Numbered from the stretch's first letter, positions 1,184 to 26,401 are shown. The stretch is DNA of 64,000 bases from a bacterium (GCA_023267535.1 JAHFNC010000004.1:3757-67756); one strand, 5' to 3'. Translations and numbers: made by a program. The notes: generated from the sequence alone by a model not told the origin.

Positions 1184-2650
1184 ATGAGTAAATTTATGTT
1201 TGAACAAACTTTTAAGAATATAGACGACATCTTACATAAAGATGCAGGATGCGGAAGTGAGCTTGATTATGTTGAACAAACCTCATGGGTACTATTTTTG
1301 AAGTACCTCGATGATTTAGAGAAAGACAAGAAAACAGCGGCTGAACTTGCAGGAAAAAAGTACACCAACATCATATCTACTGAATACAGTTGGACTACGT
1401 GGGCTACACCAAAAGGTAAAGACGGAAAACTTGATCATCATAAAGCCTTAACTGGAGATGATTTAAAAGACTTTGTTGATCTTAAACTTTTTCCTTATCT
1501 TAAGAAATTTAAAACCACAGCTTTAAGTCCAGATACTATTGAATACAAGATTGGTGAGATTTTTTCTGAATTAAAAAATAGAATTCATAGTGGATATAAC
1601 TTACGTGAAGTTATTAATCGTATAGACGAGCTTCGTTTTCGTACTCATGCAGAAAAGCATGAAATGAGCCACTTGTATGAATCTAAAATACAGAACATGG
1701 GGAATGCTGGTCGTAATGGTGGTGAGTACTATACTCCAAGACCACTTATTACTACTATTGTTAAAGTGGTAGCTCCAAAAATTGGAGACACTATTTATGA
1801 TGGTGCAGTAGGTAGTGCAGGATTCTTATGTGAAGCTTTTGATTACCTAAAGAAGAGTAAAAACCTTACAACGAAAGATGTAGAAATTTTACAAAAGAAA
1901 ACTTTTTATGGAAAGGAAAAGAAATCATTAGCATATATTATCGGTACAATGAATATGATTTTACACGGTGTAGAAGCTCCTAATATTATCCATACCAACA
2001 CTCTTGCTGAAAATCTTGCAGATATACAAGAAAAAGATCGTTATAATGTTGTGTTGGCAAACCCACCATTTGGAGGAAAAGAACGAGTAGAGGTACAGCA
2101 GAACTTTCCAATTAAAACAGGAGAAACTGCTTCTCTTTTCTTACAACACTTTATTAAGATATTAAAAGCAGGAGGTAAAGGCGGTGTGGTTATAAAAAAT
2201 ACATTTCTTAGTAATACAGATAACGCTACGGTTAGTTTAAGAAAGTTACTTCTTGAGAATTGTAACCTACATACAGTATTAGACTTACCTGCTGGAACTT
2301 TTACAGGTGCCGGTGTCAAAACAGTCGTACTCTTTTTTGAAAAAGGGTCCTCTACGAAAAAAGTATGGTTCTATCAACTTAACTTAGACAGAAATCTCGG
2401 TAAAACAAATTCACTTAGCGAGAAAGATTTAGAAGATTTTATTAAACTTCAAAAGAATAAAGCAGAAAGTGAAAACTCTTGGAGTATAGATATAAAAAAC
2501 ATAGACCAAAAGACTTTTGATTTAAGTGCAAAGAACCCTAACAAAAAAGAAGAGGTTGCTTTGCGTTCCCCAGAAGAGATTTTGAAAGAGATGAAAGCTT
2601 TAGATAAGGAGAGTGAAAAGATATTAAGCGGTATTATTAAATTGATATGA
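1184..2650 (+). CDS. hsdM: Type I restriction-modification system, N6-adenine DNA methyltransferase subunit M
   Basis: 488 aa; N12 methylase NPPF motif 'LANPPFGG'; AdoMet-binding 'DGAVGSAGF'; HsdM N-terminal domain. Confidence 0.9.
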   Translation: MSKFMFEQTFKNIDDILHKDAGCGSELDYVEQTSWVLFLKYLDDLEKDKKTAAELAGKKYTNIISTEYSWTTWATPKGKDGKLDHHKALTGDDLKDFVDLKLFPYLKKFKTTALSPDTIEYKIGEIFSELKNRIHSGYNLREVINRIDELRFRTHAEKHEMSHLYESKIQNMGNAGRNGGEYYTPRPLITTIVKVVAPKIGDTIYDGAVGSAGFLCEAFDYLKKSKNLTTKDVEILQKKTFYGKEKKSLAYIIGTMNMILHGVEAPNIIHTNTLAENLADIQEKDRYNVVLANPPFGGKERVEVQQNFPIKTGETASLFLQHFIKILKAGGKGGVVIKNTFLSNTDNATVSLRKLLLENCNLHTVLDLPAGTFTGAGVKTVVLFFEKGSSTKKVWFYQLNLDRNLGKTNSLSEKDLEDFIKLQKNKAESENSWSIDIKNIDQKTFDLSAKNPNKKEEVALRSPEEILKEMKALDKESEKILSGIIKLI

Positions 2651-3714
2651 ATGAAAAAAAAGAAGTAAAACATATTTTTATAGATTCGAATATTTTTTTA
2701 GATTTTTATAGATTAGGGAAAGAAGATTTAGAGAAACTTAATCAGTTGATTGACTTTGTTAAAAATGGTGATATTAAAATATATTTAACAAAACAGGTCT
2801 ACGATGAATTTTACAGACACAGAGAAGACACCTTTCAAAAAACATACAAAGGTTTTTTAGACTCAAAAACTGATATTCAGATGAATTCTATTTTTAAGAA
2901 TTATCCAGAATATAAAAAGATTACTCTTTTGAAAAAAGCTTTAGAGAAACTTAAGTCTGACTTAGGTCAAAAAGTAGAAAGTGACATGAGTTCAAAAAGT
3001 TTAATTGCGGATGAGGTTGTGAGAAAAATATTTGAAGCCTCTTTTTATATTGATTCGGATAAGTTTTTAGAAATGGCGATTATAAGACACAGACTTGGAA
3101 ATCCACCAGGTAAAAAAAATACTAGTTATGGAGATGAAATCAACTGGGAAACATTACTAAGTGTGGTTCCTGACGGAGAAAAACTAATAATAGTTAGTAA
3201 CGATGGAGATTACGAAAGTCCAATGTCAGAAAGAAAAATCAACGGCTATTTGGAAGCTGAATGGGATAAAAAAAAGAAATCAAAAATCTATTTATACAAG
3301 TCCCTAAGTTCATTTTTTAGAGAACACAACATTGCTATTGAGTTTGAAATTGAACAAGATAAAAGTTTACTTGTAGAAAATTTGATAAACAGTGGTAGTT
3401 TTATGGTAACTCACGAAGTTATAAGAAGGCTTTCAAAGTATAATTCATTTTCAGACGACCAAATAAAAGGTCTTGCTACAGCTTTACTAGGTAACTCGCA
3501 AGTACGGTCAATTATAGAAGATGATGATGTTAGAACTTTTTATAAAATAAACTTACTGTCTAGGTCTGATATTTTTGACGATGAAATGTGGAGTGAGATA
3601 GAGTCTCTTATTATAGTTAACCCAGTTCAGGTTAATAAAGATATTGAGGATATTATTAAAAGTCTTGATGATAAAATTGATGAAGATATCAATGTGGACG
3701 ACATTCCATTTTAA
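2647..3714 (+). CDS. PIN-like domain protein inside the Type I R-M operon (candidate abortive-infection/nuclease component)
   Basis: 355 aa; start overlaps hsdM stop (ATGA) and ends 3 nt before hsdS. N-term 'IFIDSNIFLDFY' … 'IIVSNDGDYES' gives acidic residues spaced like a PIN fold, with an acidic C-terminal tail. The family call comes from motif pattern only. Confidence 0.45.
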   Translation: MNEKKEVKHIFIDSNIFLDFYRLGKEDLEKLNQLIDFVKNGDIKIYLTKQVYDEFYRHREDTFQKTYKGFLDSKTDIQMNSIFKNYPEYKKITLLKKALEKLKSDLGQKVESDMSSKSLIADEVVRKIFEASFYIDSDKFLEMAIIRHRLGNPPGKKNTSYGDEINWETLLSVVPDGEKLIIVSNDGDYESPMSERKINGYLEAEWDKKKKSKIYLYKSLSSFFREHNIAIEFEIEQDKSLLVENLINSGSFMVTHEVIRRLSKYNSFSDDQIKGLATALLGNSQVRSIIEDDDVRTFYKINLLSRSDIFDDEMWSEIESLIIVNPVQVNKDIEDIIKSLDDKIDEDINVDDIPF

Positions 3715-3717
3715 TTT

Positions 3718-4839
3718 ATGAAAAAAGAAAACTGGGAAATAAAAAGTTTTGAAGAATGTCTTGAAAAAGTTGTTTATACAAACAAAATTCAAAGAAAAGA
3801 TTTTCTTGATAATGGAAAGCATCCAGTAATTTCACAAGAGAAAGATTTTGTTAATGGGTACTGGGATAATTCTAAAGATTTATTTAAGGTTAGAAAACCA
3901 GTTATAATTTTTGGTGATCATACACAAGTCTTAAAATATGTAGATTTTGATTTTGTTCTTGGTGCTGATGGTGTAAAAATACTTCAGCCTACAAGTGAGC
4001 TAGAACCAAGATTTTTTTACTATTATTTACAAAACATAAATATTGGTAGTTTAGGATACGCAAGACATTACAGATTATTAAAAGAGAGTGAAGTAGAATT
4101 TCCAAAGTCTCTTTTAGAACAGCAACGCATAGTGTCAGTTTTAGATAAAGCATTCGTTGATATATCTAAAGCAAAAGATATTGCTGAACAGAATCTTAAA
4201 AATGCAAAAGAACTTTTTGAAAGTTATTTACAGAGTATGTTTACAAATAAAGGAGATGATTGGGAAGAGAAAACATTAGGCGGTATTGCTTTTGTAAAAA
4301 GTGGAGGAACTCCTTCAAGGTCTAAAAAAGAATACTGGACAGGTAAAATAGCTTGGTATTCGTCGGGTGAATTAAATAATTTGTACACCACAACGCCAGA
4401 AAGATATATTAACGATTTAGCAATTAGTAACTCAAATGCAAAAATCTTTCCAAAAGGTTCTCTTTTAATAGGTATGTATGATACTGCGGCTCTAAAAATG
4501 TCTATATTAGACAGAGACGGTTCTTTTAATCAAGCTATTGCAGGTGTAAAACCTAATGACAAAATTGACTTAACTTTTATTTTACACTCTATCAACTCTA
4601 TCAAACCAGAATTACTTAATTTAAGACGTGGTGTTCGTCAGAAAAATCTAAGTCTTGAAAAGATAAAAAGTATCCCTACCTATGTTCCTCCACTTCAAGT
4701 ACAGAAGAATGTTGTTTCTAAATTAGGAGAACTTTCCACTGAAACAAAAAAACTTGAAGCAATCTATGAACAAAAATTAAATGACTTAGAAGAACTTAAG
4801 AAAAGTATTCTTCAAAAGGTATTTAACGGCGAACTATAA
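3718..4839 (+). CDS. hsdS: Type I restriction-modification system specificity subunit S
   Basis: 373 aa; lies between M and R genes; two TRD-like halves with coiled-coil conserved regions (…LEEL KKSILQKVFNGEL at C-term typical of HsdS). Confidence 0.8.
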   Translation: MKKENWEIKSFEECLEKVVYTNKIQRKDFLDNGKHPVISQEKDFVNGYWDNSKDLFKVRKPVIIFGDHTQVLKYVDFDFVLGADGVKILQPTSELEPRFFYYYLQNINIGSLGYARHYRLLKESEVEFPKSLLEQQRIVSVLDKAFVDISKAKDIAEQNLKNAKELFESYLQSMFTNKGDDWEEKTLGGIAFVKSGGTPSRSKKEYWTGKIAWYSSGELNNLYTTTPERYINDLAISNSNAKIFPKGSLLIGMYDTAALKMSILDRDGSFNQAIAGVKPNDKIDLTFILHSINSIKPELLNLRRGVRQKNLSLEKIKSIPTYVPPLQVQKNVVSKLGELSTETKKLEAIYEQKLNDLEELKKSILQKVFNGEL

Positions 4840-4860
4840 AAGTGCTATAATGTCAAGATT

Positions 4861-7182
4861 ATGAACGAATCTGAAACAAGGGCAGAGCTAATTGATCCAA
4901 AGCTAAAAGCTTGTGGTTGGGGTGTTGTTGAAGGATCTAAAATACTCCGTGAATACAATATTACTGCTGGTAAAATCCAAACTGGAGGTATAAGAGGAAA
5001 GCTACTTACTGCTGATTATGTATTGGTCTACAAAGGCATAAAATTGGCTGTGGTTGAGGCAAAGAGTGCAAATATAGGAGTTGGTGAGGGTGTTGCACAA
5101 GCCAAGCAATATGCAGAGAAACTAAAAATAGAAACAACCTATTCTACAAACGGAAAAGAGATATACAGTATCTGTATGAAAACTGGTGTTGAGGGTTTGG
5201 TTTCTGGTTATCTCTCACCTGATGAACTTTGGAACAAAACTTTTTCGGTTCAAAATGAATGGAGAGAGAAATTTAGTTCTATTCCTTTTGAAGATAAGAG
5301 TGGCTCTTGGCAATTACGTTATTATCAAGAAATAGCAGTAAAGAATGTTCTTGAATATGTTGCAAATGATAGGGACCGCATTTTGCTCACCTTAGCTACT
5401 GGTACAGGTAAAACAGCTATCGCTTTTCAGATAGTATGGAAACTATTTCAGACAAGATGGAATTTAAAACGTGACGGTTCTCGTCGTCCTCGTATTTTAT
5501 TTTTAGCAGATAGAAACATATTAGCCGACCAAGCATACAACTCTTTTTCTTCATTTCCAGAAGATGCTTTGGTGCGTATTAATCCTAAAGAAATAAGTAA
5601 GAAAGGAAGTGTGCCTACTAATGGGTCTATTTTCTTTACTATCTTTCAAACCTTTATGAGTGGTAAAGATGCCGAGGGAAACCCTGCACCATACTTCGGA
5701 GAATATCCATCTGATTACTTTGATTTTATTATTATAGACGAATGTCATCGTGGCGGTGCAAACGATGAAGGAAACTGGAGAGGTATCTTGGAATATTTTT
5801 CTCCTGCTGTGCAATTAGGTTTAACAGCTACCCCAAAGCGTAAAGATAATGTCGATACATATAAATATTTTGGTGAGCCAGTATATATTTATTCTCTTAA
5901 AGAGGGTATTAATGATGGATTTCTTACACCTTTTAAGGTTAAGCGTATTAAGACAACATTAGACGATTATATTTATACAAGTGATGACCAAATCATCGAA
6001 GGGGAAATCGAGGAAGGAAAACTTTATACCGAACCTGATTTTAATAAGATAATTGAAATTAAAGCGAGAGAAGAAAAGCGTGTGAAGGTATTTATGGACG
6101 AAGCAAATCAAAATGAAAAAGCTATTGTCTTTTGTGCTACTCAAGATCATGCGGCTGCGGTTCGTGATTTAATTAATCAATACAAGAAAAGTGCTGATCC
6201 AAATTATTGTGTCCGTGTTACAGCAAATGATGGAGAGATAGGCGAACAATTTTTAAGAGAATTCCAAGATAACGAAAAAACTATACCAACTATTTTAACG
6301 ACATCACAGAAACTTTCAACTGGAGTAGATGCTAGAAATATACGTAACATTGTACTCATGCGACCAGTGAACTCTATGATTGAATTTAAGCAAATTGTAG
6401 GGCGTGGTACACGTTTATTTGATGGTAAGGAATTCTTTACTATTTATGACTTTGTGGATGCTTATCACCATTTTGCGGATCCTGAATGGGATGGAGAACC
6501 GATCAGTCCAGTAGATGATGAACCTACGGAACCTAAACCACCAAAAGGGGTAGAGGGTGAACCACCTTTTCCTCCAGAACCACCAACAGAACCAAATAAG
6601 AAACTTAAGATTAAATTACGAGATGGAAAAGAACGTGAAATACAACACATGATAGCAACTTCTTTTTGGGGTGCAGACGGTAAACCTATTTCTGTGGAAG
6701 AGTTTTTACAAAACCTGTTTGGGACACTGCCTAGTCTTTTTAAGGGTGAAGAAGAGTTGCGAGAGATATGGAGTAATCCAATAACAAGAAAAAGTTTGTT
6801 AGAAAAACTAGACGAGGCTGGGTATGGAAAAGACGAACTAACTACATTACAGAAATTAATTGACGCTGAAAATAGTGATCTTTTTGATGTGTTGGAATAT
6901 GTATTTAATAGTGACGTTAAACCGATACCAAGAGAGATAAGAGTAGAAACATCACAGGAAACTATTTTTGAATCCCTTAATGATAAACAAAAAGAATTTA
7001 TTGAATTTGTGTTGAGTAAATATATTGAAACAGGTGTAGAAGAATTAGACCAAGAGAAACTACCAATACTTCTTACTAATAAATATCAGTCGCTAGAAGA
7101 TGCAAAAGATACACTAGGTGATATTGATTTGATTCGTTCGATTTTCTTCAAATTCCAAGAGAAACTATACGCAAAAGTATAA
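4861..7182 (+). CDS. hsdR: Type I restriction enzyme R subunit (short, EcoEI-R-C-type C-terminus)
   Basis: 773 aa. N-term 'MNESETRAELIDPKLKACGWG' nuclease domain with D…VVEAK; SF2 motifs 'TGTGKT' and 'DECHR'; Pro-rich linker then a C-terminal domain. Confidence 0.9.
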   Translation: MNESETRAELIDPKLKACGWGVVEGSKILREYNITAGKIQTGGIRGKLLTADYVLVYKGIKLAVVEAKSANIGVGEGVAQAKQYAEKLKIETTYSTNGKEIYSICMKTGVEGLVSGYLSPDELWNKTFSVQNEWREKFSSIPFEDKSGSWQLRYYQEIAVKNVLEYVANDRDRILLTLATGTGKTAIAFQIVWKLFQTRWNLKRDGSRRPRILFLADRNILADQAYNSFSSFPEDALVRINPKEISKKGSVPTNGSIFFTIFQTFMSGKDAEGNPAPYFGEYPSDYFDFIIIDECHRGGANDEGNWRGILEYFSPAVQLGLTATPKRKDNVDTYKYFGEPVYIYSLKEGINDGFLTPFKVKRIKTTLDDYIYTSDDQIIEGEIEEGKLYTEPDFNKIIEIKAREEKRVKVFMDEANQNEKAIVFCATQDHAAAVRDLINQYKKSADPNYCVRVTANDGEIGEQFLREFQDNEKTIPTILTTSQKLSTGVDARNIRNIVLMRPVNSMIEFKQIVGRGTRLFDGKEFFTIYDFVDAYHHFADPEWDGEPISPVDDEPTEPKPPKGVEGEPPFPPEPPTEPNKKLKIKLRDGKEREIQHMIATSFWGADGKPISVEEFLQNLFGTLPSLFKGEEELREIWSNPITRKSLLEKLDEAGYGKDELTTLQKLIDAENSDLFDVLEYVFNSDVKPIPREIRVETSQETIFESLNDKQKEFIEFVLSKYIETGVEELDQEKLPILLTNKYQSLEDAKDTLGDIDLIRSIFFKFQEKLYAKV

Positions 7183-7200: not shown

Positions 7201-9744
7201 TTAGATCATTCTTTTCTTTATGTTTCGTACAAGATCAGTGATTTCTTTCTTTGCAATATCAGGGATTTTAAATATAGAAACATCAGTTTTTAATAACCAT
7301 TCGGCACATTCCTTTCTATCATAATCCATACTTTCAATGTGGTTAGAAATTTCAATGGCTGTATGTCTACTTAGTCCGAGATTGATAAGAGAAACTTGGG
7401 TCCTTTCAAATACCCCAAACTCGAGCCACATATTTAAATCAGGGACGGAATCAAGAAACTCAGGGTGATTCATACTAAGATAATACTTTAAAATATCAAT
7501 ATAACATGAAGAATACTTTGCAAATTTAAACCTAACATATTCTTCTATATCCCCCATTGTGTTTCTGATAATTAGTGAAAGCTTTTTCTTGGGATCTCTA
7601 TTCTCCCAGTACCTAATATTAGACTTTATTATTCTAGCAAGTGGATATCCTCTCATCCAATTAGTTACTAGAATGGTGTAGTAAGGTGCGAGCGCTTCGT
7701 GGTCCCCAGAAAGAATTCTACTTATTCTTTTTATAATTGCTATGTAGCAATTAGACGCATCTAAATCGTCAGGTAAAACAGGAATTAGGTTTTTTATGTC
7801 ATCATCATAATTTACAAAATAATCAAAGAGTTTTTGTTGAGATATGGGGTTTATACCGGGATTTCTAAAAATTATATCATCTGGTATTTGAAGTGACTCT
7901 TTTACTTTTGAACACTCTACCTCAAGTTCATTAATGAAATCTTCGTCAAGAGGTTCATTTTTTAAGGAAGAGTTTTTAAGGAATTTTGTGAAATAATAAC
8001 TAAAAGCATATTCATGGTTAGAGCTAGAAGTTTCTTTAAAGTTACCTCTTATGTATTCAAGAAGATCAGTTTTATTTTCTGAAGCTTCAGTGATTGCTCT
8101 CTTAATAAAGTGCTTTGTTTTTTCTCTGATAGGTATATTATCCCAATCTTCAGGATCAATACATATAATATTTCCTTGAAATTCCTTTTTTAGGCGACCA
8201 GCTCGACCAGCGAGATTCCAAAAATCAGCTCCTGACATCGGTACTTTATTTCCTCTTTTTGGTTTTCTTATAAAAATTGATTTTGCTGGAAGGTTAACTC
8301 CTTCGAGAAGGGTTGAAGTACATACTAAGTATTTAATATGACCCTCAGAATATAATCTTTCAATTTCTTTTCTAATAACAAGTGGCATGTTGCCGTAATG
8401 AAAAGCAATCTTTCTTTCTAGAACTTTAGCTAAAGCATATTCTGGATGAATTAATTTCTTTATTAAATCAATCAATTCATTTATTTGATCATCTTCTGTT
8501 TCCTCTTTAGTTCCGACAAGATCAAAAAGTTTTTCTGAAGCATCTTCAGCATCTGCTTGTCCATTTACATATATCATGTTGCCACCTTCATTTGAACCAA
8601 GTAAGTAGCAAAAAGTAGACAGTTTTTCTTTTTCGTTTAAAGTTTGATTTAAGTTAATTTGCCCCAGTGGAGTAGATATATTTTTTAGACATAGGTTTAC
8701 GCTCCACTGCTTAGGGTGCCCCACTAATTGTGATACCCAAATTAAATTTTGATTTACGGCAATATATTCAGTAACTATAGTAGACCTATCTTCCTGGTTA
8801 CCTAAGCCATCCAGTAGAACCCCAGGGTTTTGAGAGAATGGACTACAGAATAGTATTTTTATGGCTGGTAGTCGAGTTGTAAGCTCTTCAATTTTTTGTT
8901 GTAAAAGAATACCTCTACCACCATCTCCAATTTTTTGAGCTTCGTCAATGACAAGAAAATCAATCTTAAAAGTGGGATTGTCACTTAGAAACCAATGTAA
9001 TCTTTCTTGCGTAAATATAAATAGAGATGGTTTGTTTAAGTCCATTTCATCAGGTGACTGAGGTACAGAACTTAGGTAAACAGAATAGTCTTCCTTATTA
9101 AACAATTGATCAGAAAAATCTTGCTCTACTTGATTGATAAGTGCTCTGGTAGGGACTATGTAGACAATATTTTTTGGATTCTTTTTGTCGTTTAGTTGCT
9201 CTAAAACAAAAGTATTTAGAATAAATGATTTTCCAGAAGAGGTTGGAGCAGAAGCACTTAAATAGTTTGAACTGTATGCTTTATCGTAAAAGTCTTTTTG
9301 AAATTTATTAAGATATATTGGCTCTTCATTTGTTTTTGTAAAAATGATATGTTCCACATCTCTTCTTGCATTTTCAATTTTAAAAGGTAACGGTATATCA
9401 TTATCGTAATCTGAAGGTAGATATTTCTTATGGATAGCAAGATTAATAGCTGGTTTGTTTGTTAACTTATGCAAAATGATAGATGCTCCAATTCTTTGGT
9501 TCTTCTTTGTTTCTGCATCTGTTAAACAACACTGGGCAATCCTTAATGCTGCATCTTGACAATCTGGGTTATCTGAATGTGATATTATACTTGCACACAT
9601 TAATAAATGATCCCAGTTTGGTATGTAAAATAAGTCAGATTGTTGATTTAAAATTGGGAAAAGTTTTATTACCGAATTTCTAATAATAGATAATAGGTCT
9701 TGTTGAAAGCTTTTTAAGTTATAAACTTTTTCAGGAAGGGTCAT
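7201..9744 (-). CDS. hamB: Hachiman-like SF2 helicase (HamB candidate)
   Basis: 847 aa; Walker A 'TSSGKS', motif II 'VIDEAQ', motif VI 'LAGRAGR'; start overlaps the preceding DUF1837-like gene by 14 nt. Confidence 0.6.
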   Translation of the reverse strand: MTLPEKVYNLKSFQQDLLSIIRNSVIKLFPILNQQSDLFYIPNWDHLLMCASIISHSDNPDCQDAALRIAQCCLTDAETKKNQRIGASIILHKLTNKPAINLAIHKKYLPSDYDNDIPLPFKIENARRDVEHIIFTKTNEEPIYLNKFQKDFYDKAYSSNYLSASAPTSSGKSFILNTFVLEQLNDKKNPKNIVYIVPTRALINQVEQDFSDQLFNKEDYSVYLSSVPQSPDEMDLNKPSLFIFTQERLHWFLSDNPTFKIDFLVIDEAQKIGDGGRGILLQQKIEELTTRLPAIKILFCSPFSQNPGVLLDGLGNQEDRSTIVTEYIAVNQNLIWVSQLVGHPKQWSVNLCLKNISTPLGQINLNQTLNEKEKLSTFCYLLGSNEGGNMIYVNGQADAEDASEKLFDLVGTKEETEDDQINELIDLIKKLIHPEYALAKVLERKIAFHYGNMPLVIRKEIERLYSEGHIKYLVCTSTLLEGVNLPAKSIFIRKPKRGNKVPMSGADFWNLAGRAGRLKKEFQGNIICIDPEDWDNIPIREKTKHFIKRAITEASENKTDLLEYIRGNFKETSSSNHEYAFSYYFTKFLKNSSLKNEPLDEDFINELEVECSKVKESLQIPDDIIFRNPGINPISQQKLFDYFVNYDDDIKNLIPVLPDDLDASNCYIAIIKRISRILSGDHEALAPYYTILVTNWMRGYPLARIIKSNIRYWENRDPKKKLSLIIRNTMGDIEEYVRFKFAKYSSCYIDILKYYLSMNHPEFLDSVPDLNMWLEFGVFERTQVSLINLGLSRHTAIEISNHIESMDYDRKECAEWLLKTDVSIFKIPDIAKKEITDLVRNIKKRMI

Positions 9745-10714
9745 AGGTTATCCCAAGTGCCTCCAAGAAGTGCTTTCTAAACTCTTCCACAGAAGGAAAT
9801 GGAAGCAGAAAAACATGTATATCAAAAGTTTCAAGATTTGTATGTTTTGAAATATGTTTGACAACATTTTTTGACCAACCTTCTATTTCTTTGTTAATCT
9901 TTTCTTTTATTTGTTCAGTGGTTTCTGTGTTTGCAACGCTTGGGTATTTATCATAATCAAATCCAATGAGGCACACACCTTTATACCTTACCTGATTATG
10001 GAGAGGGTCGTCTTTGTCCAAATATTTTAATAGAGCAACTTCCAATCTCTCATCTATTACACTCAAGTTGTCCCTCATTAATTGTAAGTCTCTTTCTGCT
10101 GGAGCAGATATTCCTCCATCTGATAAAAGAAACTCTTTAAGACTTATGAAACATTTAGAGATGCCATCGTTTAAATCTTTGTACAGTTTTGATTCACCCC
10201 AATATAAAGATAGAATATCCCTTCCTTCTTCATTTAACTCCACAGAAACATGAATACCATCAGCTCCGTTCACATGGAGTTCTGGGTTTGTTTTTAATGG
10301 CATCTTACATAGTAGTTGGGGAATTTTTAGATACTCCTGAATAAGAATATAGAGAAGCATTTCACCACCTTCACCTGTCTTCTTTAGTGAAGTAAAAAGA
10401 CTTTTTGCTTTTTCAATAAGCTCGTAAGTTTTTGTGGTTGTGTTATGTTTTGTATCATATTCTTTTGCCACCTCATATTCTTTTCTTGGAATTGCATAAT
10501 CAGCTACATGCTTTGCCACAAAACGTGCAAAGTCCTTAGTGCGAGGTCTACCATTTCCGTCTAAAGTTAAAAAGTAACAATGTGAGGTTGCTTTAGTATC
10601 TTTTAAATTAACATTTGATATAACTTCAGTTATATAAGTATTTATTTCTTGTTTGCTTGTTCTCAGAAGATCAGCAATAAGTTCTGCAATATTATCTTGG
10701 TTAGCAGTAGTCAT
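9731..10714 (-). CDS. hamA: Hachiman-like HamA candidate (DUF1837-type PD-(D/E)xK nuclease)
   Basis: 327 aa; putative nuclease core 'GADGIH…LYWGESK' (D…ExK); immediately upstream of and overlapping the helicase gene, the canonical Hachiman arrangement. Confidence 0.55.
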   Translation of the reverse strand: MTTANQDNIAELIADLLRTSKQEINTYITEVISNVNLKDTKATSHCYFLTLDGNGRPRTKDFARFVAKHVADYAIPRKEYEVAKEYDTKHNTTTKTYELIEKAKSLFTSLKKTGEGGEMLLYILIQEYLKIPQLLCKMPLKTNPELHVNGADGIHVSVELNEEGRDILSLYWGESKLYKDLNDGISKCFISLKEFLLSDGGISAPAERDLQLMRDNLSVIDERLEVALLKYLDKDDPLHNQVRYKGVCLIGFDYDKYPSVANTETTEQIKEKINKEIEGWSKNVVKHISKHTNLETFDIHVFLLPFPSVEEFRKHFLEALGITYDPS

Positions 10715-10720
10715 ATTTTA

Positions 10721-11200
10721 TTAATTTAAGAATCTACTTATTGGTTCGTTGAGCAGCGATTCAGCAATTTCTATCAGAATATTATCTCTAAAGCTTTGAA
10801 AATCTTTAGCTCCATGGAAGGTGTTGCATCGTATTTGATATATACACTTCATAATATTCGTTACATCCTTTATATCAATAAGTAAAATACCCTCTAAGTT
10901 ATTTTTTGTGGGTCTCATATCCCTAATAGGTGTCTCCTTTTTTAAATCTTCTAATCTTTCTAAATATTTGGGAGAAGACCAGGTTTCTATAAAAATATTT
11001 TTTAGAATATTATCATTATTATAAAACCAGTTTAATTTATGACTGTCTGTGATATTTGCTGCATTACTTCGGAAAGACTCGTCTGTAATGTACGCGTCAA
11101 AAATCATCCAATAAATAATGAATCGAATCCATGCATCAGCTGTATTTTCATCGGCTTTCCTTTTCCATGTTCTAAGTCTTTCTATAAATTCAGGGTCCAT
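10721..11200 (-). CDS. small hypothetical protein with a HEPN-like Rx4H motif, first gene of the Hachiman-like operon
   Basis: 159 aa; 'IRCNTFHG' (R-x4-H) near the C-terminus of a predicted helical protein; 6-nt gap to hamA. Confidence 0.35.
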   Translation of the reverse strand: MDPEFIERLRTWKRKADENTADAWIRFIIYWMIFDAYITDESFRSNAANITDSHKLNWFYNNDNILKNIFIETWSSPKYLERLEDLKKETPIRDMRPTKNNLEGILLIDIKDVTNIMKCIYQIRCNTFHGAKDFQSFRDNILIEIAESLLNEPISRFLN

Positions 11201-11382: not shown

Positions 11383-11456
11383 TGGCTGGGGTACATGGAC
11401 TCGAACCACGATACTCAGGACCAAAACCTGATGTCCTACCATTAGACGATACCCCA
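11383..11456 (-). tRNA. tRNA-Gln (anticodon UUG)
   Basis: Minus-strand sequence folds as a cloverleaf. 5' TGGGGTA pairs with 3' TACCCCA-G-CCA; anticodon stem TCAGG/CCTGA with loop TTTTGGT (anticodon TTG); T-arm CGTGG-TTCGAGT-CCATG; CCA encoded. The acceptor matches the E. coli tRNA-Gln pattern. Confidence 0.85.
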
Positions 11457-11882: not shown

Positions 11883-12012
11883 ATTTCAAACATTTTTTAA
11901 GAAAATATCAATATTTACACTTATTAAAAATAAATATAAAATGGCAATCAGTTTGTGTTAACGGGGGATGTTCTTTTATTTTTTTTGAATCAGGAGTGGA
12001 GGGAGATAATAA

Positions 12013-13034
12013 TGAACAAGCAAGCTGTGCTCTCTATTGTTCCAAATATTCCAAACGCTGAAGACGAAGATCCTGGCGTCGCCCTATTAATATCGGCCGA
12101 CCAGCTTCTTTTTGATCCAAATCAACCAAGAAAGAGATACACGAAAAAAGGTCTTGAGAAATTGGCTAAAAGCATTCAAGACCAAGGTTTGCAACAGCCG
12201 GTGGTCGTTACCTTTGCTTATCGTAAGAAAGGCATAGATTACTATTACATCAAGTTCGGCGAAAGGCGTTATCGCGCTCATATTTTGCTTGGCTACAAAA
12301 ACGTTCCTTGTCTTGTGAAGAAGGGGACCTACGACGGCAAGCTTGATGTGGAACGAGTGCTTGCGCAGACTTCGGAAAATAATTTGCGCGAACCACATTC
12401 GCACAGCGAGATGATTAACGTCCTTCGTTTGGTCGTTGAAGACGAACGAGAAAAGTCTGATGGCGTGATTGGCTACATCGGCAAAGCTCAAGAAAGATTT
12501 GCCACAGCTCTTGGCTATACCGCTGAGGCCACCAGAAGGTATCACGTTTTGGCTAATCTTCATTCGGAGTTAGTTGAGATGTTGGATATTGAAGACGAAG
12601 AAGAAGGGGACGAACGAGAAAAGCTTAACTTCAGCGTTGCTCTTTCTTTGGCTAGAGCACCAAAAGATGCTCAGCTTGGGATTCTTGAAAGGTCAAAGCC
12701 TCACTTTGAAAAGTCTCACAATCACGGCATTGCTTTTGTTTCTGAACAAGCAAGGTCTGTTCGCGAGAGTCGTGGTGAAAAGATAGTCGGCAGGAAGCCG
12801 AGCGAATCAATTGACCTTGTCAGGAAATTTCTAACCTTCACCAACAATCGCCACGATTTGGTCTTTGGGCAAATGAAGCCAGCTGAGATAAAAGCCATTT
12901 TGGCTTCGGCGAGCGTGACCACCGTTGATGTTTTGCTTAACGCAGTCATTATGGCCGCAACAAACCTGAAATCACTTCAGGCACTGATTCAAGAAAGGAG
13001 AGATTACAATTATAGAGAATTCAGAAAGAAATAA
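12013..13034 (+). CDS. ParB-like nuclease (ParB/Srx) domain protein
   Basis: ParB N-terminal motifs 'DPNQPRK…LEKLAKSIQDQGLQQPVVV…IKFGERRYRAHILLGYKNVPCLV'. Start chosen at ATG 12013 behind a GGAGG SD (ORF track extends to 11955); GC-rich relative to flanks. Confidence 0.65.
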
Positions 13035-14474: not shown

Positions 14475-15056
14475 ATGAAAATAAAAGGAGAAATATCATT
14501 GAAAGGAATTATACAAGGAACAGCTATTGGTCTTACTTTGGTCTTGGCCGTGCTCTACGCAGCTCAAGACGAAGGATTGGTAAATTTTAACTTACCAGAG
14601 AAAACAGCAAACACGATTGGCACTTATTATAAAGTTACCAGAGTGATTGATGGTGACACCATTGAAGTAAAAATGAACAGTGGTTTAGAAAAAGTGAGAT
14701 TGATTGGAATAAACACGCCGGAAATTGTTGACCCACGCAAACCAGTGGAATGTTTTGCAAAGGAAGCTAGTAACAGAATGCATTCTTTGGCTAGCGGACA
14801 AAATGTGAAGCTTGAATTTGATGATTCGCAAAGTTATCGTGATATTTACAATCGACTTTTGGCTTATGTTTATTTGCAAGATGGGGAAATGTTGAATAGA
14901 AAAATGATTGCCGAAGGTTATGCTTATGAATATACCTATATGGCTCCTTACAAATATCAAAAAGAATTTCGCGACCTGCAAACTTTTGTACAAGGAAGCG
15001 AGAGGGGACTTTGGGCCAAAGATACTTGTAACGGCAGTAAAGAGTTTCCAAAATAA
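14475..15056 (+). CDS. membrane-anchored thermonuclease (staphylococcal nuclease-like, SNase)
   Basis: N-terminal TM; SNase motifs 'RVIDGDTIEV', 'RLIGINTPE', 'YNRLLAYVYL'. Confidence 0.8.
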   Translation: MKIKGEISLKGIIQGTAIGLTLVLAVLYAAQDEGLVNFNLPEKTANTIGTYYKVTRVIDGDTIEVKMNSGLEKVRLIGINTPEIVDPRKPVECFAKEASNRMHSLASGQNVKLEFDDSQSYRDIYNRLLAYVYLQDGEMLNRKMIAEGYAYEYTYMAPYKYQKEFRDLQTFVQGSERGLWAKDTCNGSKEFPK

Positions 15057-16712: not shown

Positions 16713-17765
16713 ATGTTAATGACTTTTTTAATTATTTTGGGAATTATTATCTGTGCGCTTTTGGGAATGATTCTAATGCGTCAGAACGATGCTAAAGACG
16801 TAAAAGAAGATGACCAAACATTTTTAATTCTCCAAGATCAGTTAGAAAAATTACGAAATGCTGTAGAAAACAAATTAGAGCGTTCACAATCAGAGCTGCA
16901 TCAAGTTCTTCATCGTCAGGATTCAGAATCAAAACGTCTCATCACCGAAATCACCAAAGAATTAACCGAAGTGAAAGAAGGGAACAAGCAAGTTTTTTCA
17001 ATGACTGAGCAATTACAAAATCTTGAGAAAATTTTAACCCATCAAAAGCAACGTGGGAATTTAGGCGAAGCATCACTTGAACTTATTCTTTCAAATATGA
17101 TGTCTCCTGGGCAATACGAAATGCAATACAGATTTAAGACCGGTGAAGTTGTAGACGCTGTCATTCATACTAAAGACGGCATCATACCAGTGGATGCTAA
17201 GTATTCACTTGATAATTATCAGAGATTAATGAACGCTACCGACGAAGAAGAGACTGCTTATTATCAAAATGAATTCAAAAAAGATATTCAAAAGCGAATT
17301 GACGAGACTTCAAAATACATAAAGCCAGATGAAGGCACACTACCTTTTGCTTTTATGTTTATTCCAGCTGAGGGAATCTATTATGACCTACTTGTGAATC
17401 AAGTTTCCAAAGGTGCAATCAACACGCAAAATTTAATTGAGTATGCTTATAATAAAAGAAAAGTGATTATTGTTTCGCCGACAACTTTCTACGCATATTT
17501 GCAATCAGTGCTTTTTGGGTTCAAAGCTTTTCAGATTGAAGAGAGCGCCAAAGGTATACAAAAGAAAGTGGAGGACCTAGGAAAGCATTTAGCTGTTTAC
17601 GAAGATTACATGAAGAAGTTAGGTAATACATTAGGAACGACAGTTAATCATTACAATACCGCATACAAAGAATTAAAAAAAGTTGATAAAGATGTACTAA
17701 AAATAACTGGCGAAGAAATCGGATTGGAAGTTTTAACATTGGATAAACCAGACATTGAAGAATAG
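16713..17765 (+). CDS. rmuC: DNA recombination protein RmuC
   Basis: 350 aa; N-terminal TM plus coiled coil; RmuC C-terminal domain '…PVDAKYSLDNY…FMFIPAEGIYY…'. Confidence 0.8.
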   Translation: MLMTFLIILGIIICALLGMILMRQNDAKDVKEDDQTFLILQDQLEKLRNAVENKLERSQSELHQVLHRQDSESKRLITEITKELTEVKEGNKQVFSMTEQLQNLEKILTHQKQRGNLGEASLELILSNMMSPGQYEMQYRFKTGEVVDAVIHTKDGIIPVDAKYSLDNYQRLMNATDEEETAYYQNEFKKDIQKRIDETSKYIKPDEGTLPFAFMFIPAEGIYYDLLVNQVSKGAINTQNLIEYAYNKRKVIIVSPTTFYAYLQSVLFGFKAFQIEESAKGIQKKVEDLGKHLAVYEDYMKKLGNTLGTTVNHYNTAYKELKKVDKDVLKITGEEIGLEVLTLDKPDIEE

Positions 17766-24514: not shown

Positions 24515-26401
24515 ATGACTGTAAGTGAAATTAGAGCAAAATTTTTATCATATATGGAAATGAAGGGGCACAAAGTTGTCTTTTCTTCGTCATTAAAACC
24601 AGAGAATGACCCAACCACACTCTTTACTGGCTCCGGAATGCAACCAATGCTTCCATATTTGCTTGGTCAGCCTCACGAATTGGGAAAAAGGATCGCTGAT
24701 TCGCAAAAATGTTTTCGTTCACAAGATATAGATGATGTTGGAGATAACCGCCACACCACTTTCTTTGAAATGCTTGGAAATTGGTCATTTGGTGATTATT
24801 TTAAGGGAGAAGAAATCGTCTGGATGTTTAATTTTTTAATTGGTGAACTTCACCTTGACCCAAAAAACTTCTACGTAACTTGTTTCAAAGGAAATTCTAA
24901 TTTAAATATTCCAAGAGATGATGTATCGGCTGACTTGTGGAAAAAAACTTTCAAACAAAAAGGATTAGATGTAAAAGTTGGAGAGAATCCAGAAGTTGAT
25001 GGAATAAAAGAAGGAGAACATATTTTCTATTATGACGAGAGAAAAAATTGGTGGTCTCGTTCTGGAATTCCAAAGAATATGCCAGAAGGTGAGCCTGGGG
25101 GGCCAGATTCTGAAATGTTTTATGACTTTGATTCTGATTTATCAAAAAAGATTCACGCTAATTCAAAATTTAAAGATAGTGTTTGTCATGTGAACTGTGA
25201 TTGTGGAAGATTTTTGGAAATTGGAAACAATGTTTTTATGGAATACAAGAAAGTTGGAAATGGCTTTGAAGAATTGCCACAGAAAAATGTTGACCACGGC
25301 TCTGGACTAGAAAGACATGCTTGTGCTGTAAATAATGACGAAGATATTTTTAATATCGATGTATTTAATGAAGCAAAAAATACTATAGAAAGATTATCTG
25401 GTAAAAAATATCGCGATGATGAAAAAGTAACTTATGCTTATCGTGTAATTCTTGATCATCTTCGTGCCGGAACATTTTTAATTGGAGATGATGTTTTACC
25501 AGGGAATAAAGATCAGTCATATTTCGTGCGCCGACTTATTCGTCGTTCAGTGAGATTCGCCAGAAATTTAGGAATTGATAAAAATTTTACAAAATCAATC
25601 GCGCTTTCATTTATTGAAGTTTATAAAGACGAATATAAAAATCTAAACGAAAAGAAAGAAATCATTTTATTTGAAATGGAAAAAGAAGAGACTAAATTTA
25701 GAGCCACTCTTGAAAAAGGAATAAAAGAATTCGAGAAAATCGGTAGTAGAGACATTTCAGGACACAATGCATTTGATTTACTTCAATCTTACGGATTTCC
25801 AATTGAACTTACAATTGAACTAGCAAAAGAAAGAGGTTTAAATGTTGATTTAGTTGGATTTGAAGAAGAAAAGAAAAAGCATTCTGAAAGTTCTCGCACT
25901 GCTTCCGCTGGAAAGTTTAAAGGAGGACTAGGAGGAGACGGAGAAATAGAAACAAAATATCATACAGCTACACACTTATTACACGAAGCATTACGCCAAG
26001 TACTTGGAGAACACGTGGAACAAAAAGGTTCAAACATCACATCCGAAAGATTACGTTTTGATTTTTCTCATAATGAAAAAATGACAGACGAAGAAAAGAA
26101 AAAAGTTGAAGATTTGGTAAACGAAAAAATAAATGAAGCATTGCCAGTGAAAAGAGAAGAGATTAAGAAAGATGAGGCCATAAGTAGAGGCGCAATTGGA
26201 CTTTTCGGTGATAAATATGGCGACGTGGTTACGGTTTATAGAATCGGAACTGGCGAAAAAAGAGGGGATACAAATTTGTTTTCAATGGAATTATGTGGTG
26301 GTCCTCATGTTGCCAACACCAAAGAACTTGGTCACTTTAAAATAGTAAAAGAAGAAGCAGTCTCTGCCGGTGTTCGTCGAATAAAAGCGATTTTGTCTTA
26401 A
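24515..26401 (+). CDS. alaS: alanyl-tRNA synthetase, short form lacking the C-Ala domain
   Basis: Class II motifs 'TLFTGSGMQP', 'RHTTFFEMLGNWSFGDYFK'; editing-domain 'HTATHLLHEALRQVLGEHVEQKGS…CGGPHV'. 628 aa; ends right after the editing domain. Confidence 0.85.
   Translation: MTVSEIRAKFLSYMEMKGHKVVFSSSLKPENDPTTLFTGSGMQPMLPYLLGQPHELGKRIADSQKCFRSQDIDDVGDNRHTTFFEMLGNWSFGDYFKGEEIVWMFNFLIGELHLDPKNFYVTCFKGNSNLNIPRDDVSADLWKKTFKQKGLDVKVGENPEVDGIKEGEHIFYYDERKNWWSRSGIPKNMPEGEPGGPDSEMFYDFDSDLSKKIHANSKFKDSVCHVNCDCGRFLEIGNNVFMEYKKVGNGFEELPQKNVDHGSGLERHACAVNNDEDIFNIDVFNEAKNTIERLSGKKYRDDEKVTYAYRVILDHLRAGTFLIGDDVLPGNKDQSYFVRRLIRRSVRFARNLGIDKNFTKSIALSFIEVYKDEYKNLNEKKEIILFEMEKEETKFRATLEKGIKEFEKIGSRDISGHNAFDLLQSYGFPIELTIELAKERGLNVDLVGFEEEKKKHSESSRTASAGKFKGGLGGDGEIETKYHTATHLLHEALRQVLGEHVEQKGSNITSERLRFDFSHNEKMTDEEKKKVEDLVNEKINEALPVKREEIKKDEAISRGAIGLFGDKYGDVVTVYRIGTGEKRGDTNLFSMELCGGPHVANTKELGHFKIVKEEAVSAGVRRIKAILS

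Follow-up and report, generated by a model that had tools for sequence, protein, structure and literature searches.

In 2017, Matelska et al. (PMC5499597) introduced PIN_12 (PF16289, formerly DUF4935) as a previously unrecognized PIN-like family of no known function, within the VapC structural group of PIN domains. Proteins of this family have an unexplained C-terminal region and their genes are usually mono-cistronic; a general remark in the same study is that coupling to subunits of Type I restriction-modification (R-M) systems occurs for some PIN-like nucleases. Brc24, or "Cosus", is a protein of mobile integrons whose single gene gives complete resistance to phage T7, at high as well as low multiplicity of infection (MOI), unlike abortive infection; the substitutions T12A, D14A, and D96A lower protection by a factor of more than 10^5, and carriage of the gene costs 11% in fitness (bioRxiv 10.1101/2024.07.02.601719). 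Effectors that are embedded in R-M operons include the anticodon nucleases PrrC and RloC, as well as RonA. In Ronin, RonA acts together with HsdMS and is triggered by ArdA, Aop1, and Ocr, an arrangement termed "decoy immunity" (bioRxiv 10.1101/2023.04.06.535777). Here, we analyze ORF355, an open reading frame (ORF) of 355 codons that lies between hsdM and hsdS of a Type I R-M operon in a stretch of bacterial DNA of 64,000 nucleotides (GCA_023267535.1 JAHFNC010000004.1:3757-67756; the window, to whose first letter all positions refer). The PIN_12 family, defense by Cosus, and R-M-embedded effectors are already known; what is newly noted is the C-terminal end of ORF355, which resembles the tip of bacterial SSB (the protein that binds single-stranded DNA).

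With moderate confidence, we read ORF355 as an autonomous second-layer anti-phage nuclease of the PIN_12 family that occupies a passenger slot at the hsdM-hsdS junction and whose C-terminal domain or tail would control or target it. The operon and the parts of ORF355 are as follows.

1184-2650, + strand: hsdM, Type I methyltransferase subunit, 488 amino acids (aa) (Pfam, PADLOC, translation)
2647-2650, + strand: ATGA overlap of the hsdM stop and the ORF355 start (direct sequence reading)
2647-3714, + strand: ORF355, PIN_12/DUF4935-family protein, 355 aa (Pfam, homolog searches, AlphaFold2)
2674-3213, + strand: predicted PIN nuclease domain that includes long helical inserts, aa 10-189 (Pfam, conservation, Foldseek)
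3343-3612, + strand: predicted all-helical C-terminal domain, aa ~233-322 (PADLOC, conservation, model)
3613-3711, + strand: acidic, variable C-terminal linker, aa 323-355 (composition, model confidence)
3697-3711, + strand: terminal pentapeptide D-D-I-P-F (direct sequence reading)
3718-4839, + strand: hsdS, specificity subunit with two target-recognition domains, 373 aa (Pfam, PADLOC)
4861-7182, + strand: hsdR, Type IB restriction/translocase subunit, 773 aa (NCBIfam, Pfam)

The gene block was established by a six-frame ORF listing and by direct reading of the junctions. The sequence-only reading that preceded this analysis had described a co-directional block of four genes, hsdM-ORF355-hsdS-hsdR, and Pfam, PADLOC, and NCBIfam bear out both the coordinates and the gene identities. 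HsdM matched Pfam N6_Mtase (2.1e-61) and HsdM_N as well as PADLOC MTase_I (4e-160), and its catalytic NPPF motif is seen in the translation as LANPPFGG. HsdS contains two Pfam Methylase_S domains and matched PADLOC Specificity_I (8.6e-61). HsdR scored 795 bits against NCBIfam NF046051, the R subunit of the EcoAI/FtnUII family of Type IB (cutoff, 550), matched Pfam ResIII, EcoEI_R_C, and HSDR_N, and has a DECH box in its translation. Judged by these matches, the host operon is a complete and apparently intact Type IB (EcoAI-like) R-M system, hsdR included.

At the hsdM/ORF355 junction, the string ATGAATGA (2647-2654) was read directly; the hsdM TGA (2648-2650) and the ORF355 ATG (2647-2649) overlap. 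ORF355 ends with a TAA at 3712-3714 and the hsdS ATG begins at 3718, leaving a gap of 3 nucleotides (nt), and the ORF listing and the junction reading place ORF355 directly between hsdM and hsdS without any additional small ORF. The overlap and the 3-nt gap had both been proposed earlier and were read in the sequence, and the ATGA overlap supports the proposed translational coupling of ORF355 to hsdM. The closest homolog of ORF355 is labeled Candidatus Gracilibacteria, and Gracilibacteria read TGA as glycine. We rejected this genetic code (code 25) for the window, given a coding density of 0.877 under code 11 and no gain with TGA as a sense codon; TGA serves as the stop codon in 5 of 63 genes under code 11. 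Because code 11 fits, the hsdM/ORF355 overlap is real. A scan for promoters and terminators, which was weakly informative as its matches were no commoner than in shuffled sequence, returned no terminator-like site on the + strand between hsdM and hsdS.

The comparison of ORF355 with Pfam revealed a match to PIN_12 (E = 1.1e-19; 71.9 bits, cutoff 32) in which aa 10-189 cover positions 1-172 of the 172-position profile, along with a weaker match to PIN_8. Pfam, NCBIfam, and PADLOC gave nothing further apart from a match of the C-terminal domain to PDC-S34. The assignment to a PIN-like, DUF4935-type family, which the sequence-only reading had derived from peptide segments that are present in the translation, was therefore correct. 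Residue conservation was determined from an alignment of 120 homologs with 32-93% identity. Invariant in this alignment are D13, E54, D163, and D186, whereas D122, D188, and N15 are conserved in at least 90% of the sequences, and little or no variation is seen in an R-L-G-N-P-P-G-K loop (aa 147-156). The acidic residues singled out earlier correspond to D13, E54, and D186/D188, and thus include three invariant positions and one that is at least 90% conserved. Together with D122 and D163, these residues form the putative set of catalytic acids.

The AlphaFold2 model of ORF355 has a predicted local distance difference test score (pLDDT) of 93.1 and a predicted template modeling score (pTM) of 0.82. 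Up to about aa 225, strands alternate with helices and long helical inserts are present; an all-helical domain (234-322), a helix (326-344), and a tail of lower confidence follow. The best Foldseek match in the PDB had an E value of 0.065, which is not significant, and the top ranks were mostly PIN proteins (HARP RNase P, VapC, and Rrp44); a single viral structural match was significant, to a phage protein annotated as "PIN like domain" (E = 2.6e-4). A search of the PDB by sequence retrieved no relative of ORF355, the best match being VapC AF_1683 (E = 0.31). The PIN fold is thus well supported by the profile match and the conserved residues, and the fold searches are no more than consistent with it.

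The domain that follows was initially described as a long acidic C-terminal tail. According to the model, most of this region (aa ~233-322) is a folded helical domain, and what stands of the earlier description is an acidic tail of about 33 residues behind it. Residues 233-302 match positions 297-366 of the 384-position PADLOC profile PDC-S34 (E = 1.2e-13). The match is limited to this segment and leaves the N-terminal ~296 profile positions unmatched, which rules out ORF355 as a full-length PDC-S34 member; what the two have in common is the helical C-terminal domain. A literature search found no paper on PDC-S34. Seven positions of the domain (T255, H256, N283, Q285, D292, D294, and F298) are conserved in the 120 homologs. 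Modeled alone, it reached a pLDDT of 84, and the isolated domain had no significant structural neighbor in the PDB, with small TPR/ARM-like repeats as the best match (E = 0.86). A word-index protein search with the C-terminal domain alone returned a single fragment. On the strength of the model, the domain is an orphan fold.

The protein ends in NVDDIPF-COOH. The C-terminal tip of bacterial SSB has the sequence DDDIPF (PMC5872125) and serves as a recruitment site for many proteins of replication and repair (PMC5872125, PMC7145534). The last five residues of ORF355 match the pattern of this tip, acidic-acidic-[I/L]-P-F, and as in SSB, whose tip is preceded by an intrinsically disordered linker, they follow a variable acidic linker; the tip is conserved across phyla and the linker is not. 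Among the 120 closest clusters, 71 end in PF and 50 match [DE][DE][ILVM]PF; the corresponding numbers are 22 and 11 for 79 species-level homologs. A set of 141 full-length representatives with at most 50% mutual identity contained 48 proteins that end in PF and 41 that end in an acidic-hydrophobic-P-aromatic sequence. By comparison, none of the 1,223 other genes in the 80 homolog loci that we surveyed encodes an ending of the type [DE][DE][ILVM]PF or [DE]-x-[ILVM]PF. In PF-ending homologs, 27% of the last 40 residues are acidic, as opposed to 17% in the remaining protein. Members with a PF tip are found inside and outside R-M operons alike. ORF355 has no OB (oligonucleotide/oligosaccharide-binding) fold and is not an SSB, and about one-third of the PIN_12 family carries the tip. 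We found no description in the literature of an SSB-tip-like motif on a defense nuclease. The tip is a feature that goes beyond the earlier reading, and it is the distinctive, testable element of ORF355.

A different conserved end, EE[YF]YKH, is present in a clade of R-M-linked Clostridia homologs. Six members of this clade (L035, L036, L038, L046, L060, and L066; homolog loci are given by L numbers) share the ending E-[ED]-[YF]-[YF]-[KR]-H, and in five of the six the gene is located directly downstream of hsdM. This separate ending makes the extreme C-terminus look like a clade-specific short motif rather than a universal one.

In the full-length model, the tail has pLDDT values of 67-82, compared with 54-62 when the C-terminal domain is modeled alone. 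This difference is compatible with, although weak evidence for, a tail that packs against the rest of ORF355. K157 in the GNPPGKK loop was considered as a docking residue and set aside, as the signal was weak and confounded by phylogeny. One may ask whether DDIPF is a working mimic of the SSB tip, serving either as a decoy for phage replication and recombination proteins or as a tether to host SSB partners; we consider this rather unlikely. As a decoy, the tip would be gripped by phage proteins that evolved to bind host SSB, and the auto-inhibited PIN nuclease would be released. As a tether, it would place the nuclease on host SSB partner proteins at replicating phage DNA. Were either to hold, the coupling to hsdM would join DNA-modification-based and replication-based sensing in one operon.

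The defense system DARNA (PD-T7-3) offers a parallel to such a link with SSB, as it is a single-protein defense with an N-terminal RNase, a helical C-terminal domain, and a connection to SSB and single-stranded DNA (bioRxiv 10.64898/2026.02.22.705581). The parallel is conceptual only, because its nuclease is of the HEPN type and is switched on by single-stranded DNA that the SSB of a phage presents, and an SSB-like tip has not been reported for it. DARNA was rejected as a relative of ORF355, its nuclease being HEPN and not PIN.

The homologs of ORF355 numbered 206 in a word-index search, and a profile search for its family yielded 949 clusters (50% identity) at E <= 1e-30 and 5,106 at E <= 1e-3. 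ORF355 fits the layout described for the family by Matelska et al. (2017), with about 350 aa, an N-terminal PIN domain (10-189), and a second, C-terminal region (~233-322). For the comparison with Cosus, we took the sequence from the cassette on plasmid pKAZ2 (KR827391.1; L083:4001-5149, 382 aa). Cosus matched PF16289 over the full profile (E = 2.4e-36), and its D14, one of the residues whose substitution lowers protection, occupies the same profile position as D13 of ORF355. The proteins further have in common the "GD..." and "S-x-D" motifs, their size (382 versus 355 aa), the order of a nuclease followed by a second region, and their occurrence as single genes on variable or mobile DNA. An hhalign comparison of a 120-sequence profile of the ORF355 family with Cosus aligned 35 columns around these "GD...S-x-D" motifs at a nonsignificant E value of 0.26. 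Cosus did not match the PADLOC profile PDC-S34, it has no acidic linker or DDIPF tip, it is encoded by an integron cassette uncoupled to a methylase, and it is the only one of the two that has been tested experimentally. Judged by its profile, the catalytic domain of ORF355 belongs to the family of a validated stand-alone defense protein, whereas the subfamily and the C-terminal module differ. By analogy, this homology argues for a defense role.

To describe the genomic contexts, genes were called in 80 homolog loci, one genome per species, and neighbors were identified by tblastn and Pfam. Seventeen of the 80 homologs lie inside Type I operons, truncated or one-gene-removed cases included, and with three other loci the number in some R-M cluster rises to 20. 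These three comprise a Mod-like (Type III-like) methylase followed by the PIN gene, a further gene, and a Res-like helicase (L007), a PIN_12 gene that follows a Type IIG enzyme (L074), and a PIN_12 gene between a Res-like helicase and two methylases (L002). Of 77 immediate upstream neighbors, 9 were HsdM and 4 were HsdS, and of 69 immediate downstream neighbors, 6 were HsdS and 4 were HsdR. Well under 1% of genes would be expected to neighbor a Type I gene. The linkage is thus far above chance adjacency, as judged against this general expectation and not against a computed matched background. Among the 27 homologs that have an upstream gene on the same strand in tight coupling (gap, <=30 nt), this was an R-M gene in 15. 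As the earlier reading had anticipated, the family combines a predicted PIN fold and conserved acids with an enrichment in R-M or defense neighborhoods.

The position within the operon varies. The order M-PIN-S-R of the window recurs in L001, L008, and a Clostridia clade, the order M-S-PIN-R in L006, L009, L010, L011, and L057, and the order R-M-PIN-X-S in L088; R-M-embedded members are distributed over at least three clades of a neighbor-joining tree. The 4-nt overlap with an upstream methylase gene recurs in L001, L008, L035, L049, L088, and L089, as well as with the non-Type-I methylase genes of L007 and L074. HsdM proteins like that of the window are 73-89% identical within their own clade and only ~25% identical to the clostridial HsdMs, and the Type I systems that host PIN_12 genes therefore belong, by sequence, to different families. 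In the clade of the window (>=66% identity), the PIN gene directly follows hsdM in 7 of 10 sampled contexts, other passengers notwithstanding. This is illustrated by L004 (2067-5671), in which hsdM is followed by an AntA-like gene of 295 aa, a duplicated fragment with the last ~40 codons of hsdM, and the PIN gene. Such a duplication points to recombination at the conserved 3' end of hsdM as the route by which cassettes come into the hsdM-hsdS junction.

R-M linkage is therefore real, dominant in the clade of the window and confined to a minority across the whole family, of which ~75-80% of the members across species adjoin no R-M gene. Even among relatives with 77-83% identity to ORF355, some have no hsd genes around them; these lie in an islet with a serine recombinase and AbiEii/HEPN genes (L090), in another cluster of methylase and helicase genes (L084-87), or on their own (L003). 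Other neighbors of homologs include HEPN_AbiU2, AbiEii, a serine recombinase, and a protein with a Schlafen/AlbA_2 domain. The PIN_12 gene of one locus (L061:2289-3967) has its start in a 4-nt overlap with a HEPN_AbiU2 gene, so that HEPN and PIN nuclease domains are found in one operon.

Further genes were observed in these operons, namely, a UvrD-like helicase between hsdM and hsdS (L009), a Mrr_cat-like gene of 298 aa between the PIN gene and hsdS (L091), a gene of 293 aa without assignment at the same place (L088), and a YgjP-like metallopeptidase after hsdR (L006). As the contexts show, defense cassettes accumulate at the hsdM-hsdS junction of these small-genome bacteria.

A homolog with ~35% identity is encoded on IncY (P1-type) phage-plasmids of Escherichia coli and in phage JL22, between lxc/ulx/darB and mat/ref. 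Comparison of an IncY plasmid (L081, NZ_CP083486.1) with the P1 reference (L082, NC_005856) showed that this is the slot in which P1 has res and mod of the Type III system EcoP1I. There were 21 such records in Escherichia, plus others in Klebsiella and Salmonella. These proteins are without the DDIPF tip, and the E. coli homolog has the same partial PDC-S34 match as ORF355. The presence of a PIN_12 gene in the P1 res-mod slot is an independent pointer to a defense role. Separately, a PIN-only relative, corresponding to aa 10-189 of ORF355 with 27% identity, is found in Ralstonia phage RSA1 (NC_009382: 12551-13120) and also in phage YO375_6; PIN_12-type nuclease domains are thus also present in phage genomes.

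Considering these contexts, we propose that ORF355 may be a metal-dependent nuclease of RNA or DNA and a passenger defense gene at the hsdM-hsdS junction. Because its start overlaps the hsdM stop, it would be made whenever the methylase is made, and it would work as a self-contained second layer and not as a subunit of the restriction enzyme. The N-terminal PIN domain would be the effector, which the helical C-terminal domain and the DDIPF tail would control or target. The tail might auto-inhibit the nuclease by folding back onto it, in the manner of the acidic tails of SSB-type proteins, or it might dock the nuclease onto proteins that bind the SSB tip at sites of replication and repair. Autonomy is the most likely mode of action by analogy with the R-M-free homologs, the 77-83% identical relatives without hsd genes, and Cosus, which acts alone. 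The contexts of the family are of the defense type, with a Hachiman system next door in the window, R-M clusters, the P1 res-mod slot, and HEPN_AbiU2/AbiEii neighbors.

Several observations weigh against this proposal. For the subfamily of ORF355 itself, the support comes from sequence, genomic context, and models, and none of the Foldseek matches to solved PIN structures is significant by itself. The PIN domain is all that ORF355 shares with Cosus, the C-terminal halves being unrelated. A search for a docking site of the tail, made among body residues conserved only in PF-tipped proteins, located none. Many family members are flanked by housekeeping genes such as those for Mur ligase, ribonucleotide reductase, and ribosomal protein L27. 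Finally, the tight, preserved hsdM-PIN junction and the hsdM fragment still joined to the PIN gene of L004 suggest more than casual hitchhiking.

The last of these points leads to the alternative that survives best, a guard of the PrrC/Ronin type, in which HsdM or HsdM2S would hold ORF355 inactive until a phage anti-restriction protein (Ocr, ArdA, or Stp-like) blocks the R-M complex; the freed ORF355 would then degrade nucleic acid of the cell or the phage and abort the infection. Precedents exist in PrrC/EcoprrI/Stp and in Ronin, and what would be expected of a guarded effector is seen in the overlap with methylase genes of Type I, Type III-like, and Type IIG systems, in the hsdM-PIN adjacency that is retained in 7 of 10 contexts even with extra passengers, and in the embedding of at least three PIN_12 clades at several operon positions. 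In the prr locus, prrC is located between hsdS and hsdR, the same position that the PIN gene occupies in the five loci of the order M-S-PIN-R. Moreover, the P1-type plasmid gene adjoins the anti-restriction genes darB and ulx. However, the ~75-80% of homologs without an R-M neighbor, together with the mostly mono-cistronic organization of DUF4935 genes (Matelska et al. 2017), the hsd-free relatives at 77-83% identity, and the protection that Cosus confers at high and low MOI without an R-M partner, speak against a guard, which we regard as a real if minor possibility. The activation of ORF355 upon blocked restriction, as suggested by the sequence-only reading, is by the same analogies less favored than autonomous action.

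The resemblance to the precedents is also incomplete. ORF355 has in common with PrrC and RloC that an extra nuclease gene is found inside an hsd operon, plausibly as a back-up layer of defense. The effector of PrrC is, however, a HEPN tRNase, whereas that of ORF355 is of the PIN type. PrrC also has an NTPase domain; neither an NTPase nor a HEPN-type anticodon-nuclease domain was found in ORF355 with Pfam, NCBIfam, and PADLOC. Ronin resembles the window in the tight linkage of an effector gene to hsdM and hsdS and provides the model of HsdMS suppressing the effector until an anti-restriction protein binds. RonA differs in being a membrane protein of 61 aa, usually in the absence of hsdR, whereas here a soluble nuclease of 355 aa is predicted and hsdR is intact.

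It is improbable that ORF355 is instead a nonimmune nuclease of genome maintenance or RNA processing that joins the SSB partner network through its tip while the hsd junction merely collects inserts. The match of the terminal motif to the SSB tip, a recruiter of replication and repair enzymes (PMC5872125, PMC7145534), would fit this role, as would the housekeeping neighbors and the entry of unrelated AntA-like, Mrr-like, and UvrD-like helicase genes into the hsdM-hsdS junction. Its locations are nevertheless mobile or variable (a defense island next to a tRNA gene, islets with a serine recombinase, and the P1-type res-mod slot), the domain family includes a mobile-integron cassette, a PIN-only Ralstonia phage relative, and a proven defense protein, and about two-thirds of the family is without the tip through which SSB partners would be reached.

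Still more improbable is a VapC-like toxin with the C-terminal domain and tail as built-in antitoxin, acting as an addiction module that stabilizes the hsd operon or the island: the place of PIN_12 in the VapC structural group, the absence of a separate antitoxin gene, so that inhibition would have to act in cis, the 11% fitness cost of Cosus, and the higher pLDDT of the tail in the full-length model, compatible with folding back, are outweighed by the lack of a VapBC architecture (~355 versus ~130 aa and no upstream antitoxin gene), by the lack of any sign of a labile inhibitory part, and by the fact that R-M systems already behave as addiction modules on their own.

If ORF355 is active, defense by PIN_12 proteins, validated for Cosus, would extend to a much larger and differently built subfamily (949 clusters), and a soluble PIN nuclease would join the short list of R-M-embedded effectors. 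The hsdM-PIN junction would then provide a clean natural test of whether such embedded genes guard the methylase or are simply its co-expressed neighbors, and the SSB-like tip (F355, DDIPF) would be a simple mutable handle on the control or targeting of a single-protein defense nuclease.

Downstream of hsdR, the window contains the following features.

7201-9744, - strand: hamB (Hachiman), 847 aa (PADLOC HamB, 5e-285)
9731-10714, - strand: hamA (Hachiman), 327 aa (PADLOC HamA, 4e-121; Pfam HamA, 4e-63)
10721-11200, - strand: ORF of 159 aa, 6 nt upstream of hamA (weak PADLOC match to the C-terminus of DzbB, E = 1e-4)
11383-11456, - strand: tRNA-Gln (ARAGORN)
11955-13034, + strand: ORF of 359 aa with a ParB_N domain, just past the tRNA-Gln

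The complete Hachiman pair is arranged tail-to-tail with hsdR, with 18 nt between the stop codons, and its location beside the hsd block makes the region from 1.2 to 11.2 kb a small defense island. The 159-aa ORF, which had no match in Pfam or NCBIfam, could be a third, uncharacterized Hachiman-associated gene. The tRNA-Gln, on the far side of the hsd and Hachiman block, may mark the boundary of the island. The stretch with the ParB_N ORF has a guanine-plus-cytosine (GC) content of 0.44-0.46, compared with ~0.31 elsewhere, which suggests that it is separately acquired DNA. The backbone is chromosomal, given the alanyl-tRNA synthetase gene at 24515-26401. Two further genes were observed on the + strand a few kilobases past the island, one encoding a staphylococcal-nuclease-like (SNase-like) protein (14475-15056; 3.7e-22) and the other a protein of the RmuC family (16713-17765; 8.6e-54).

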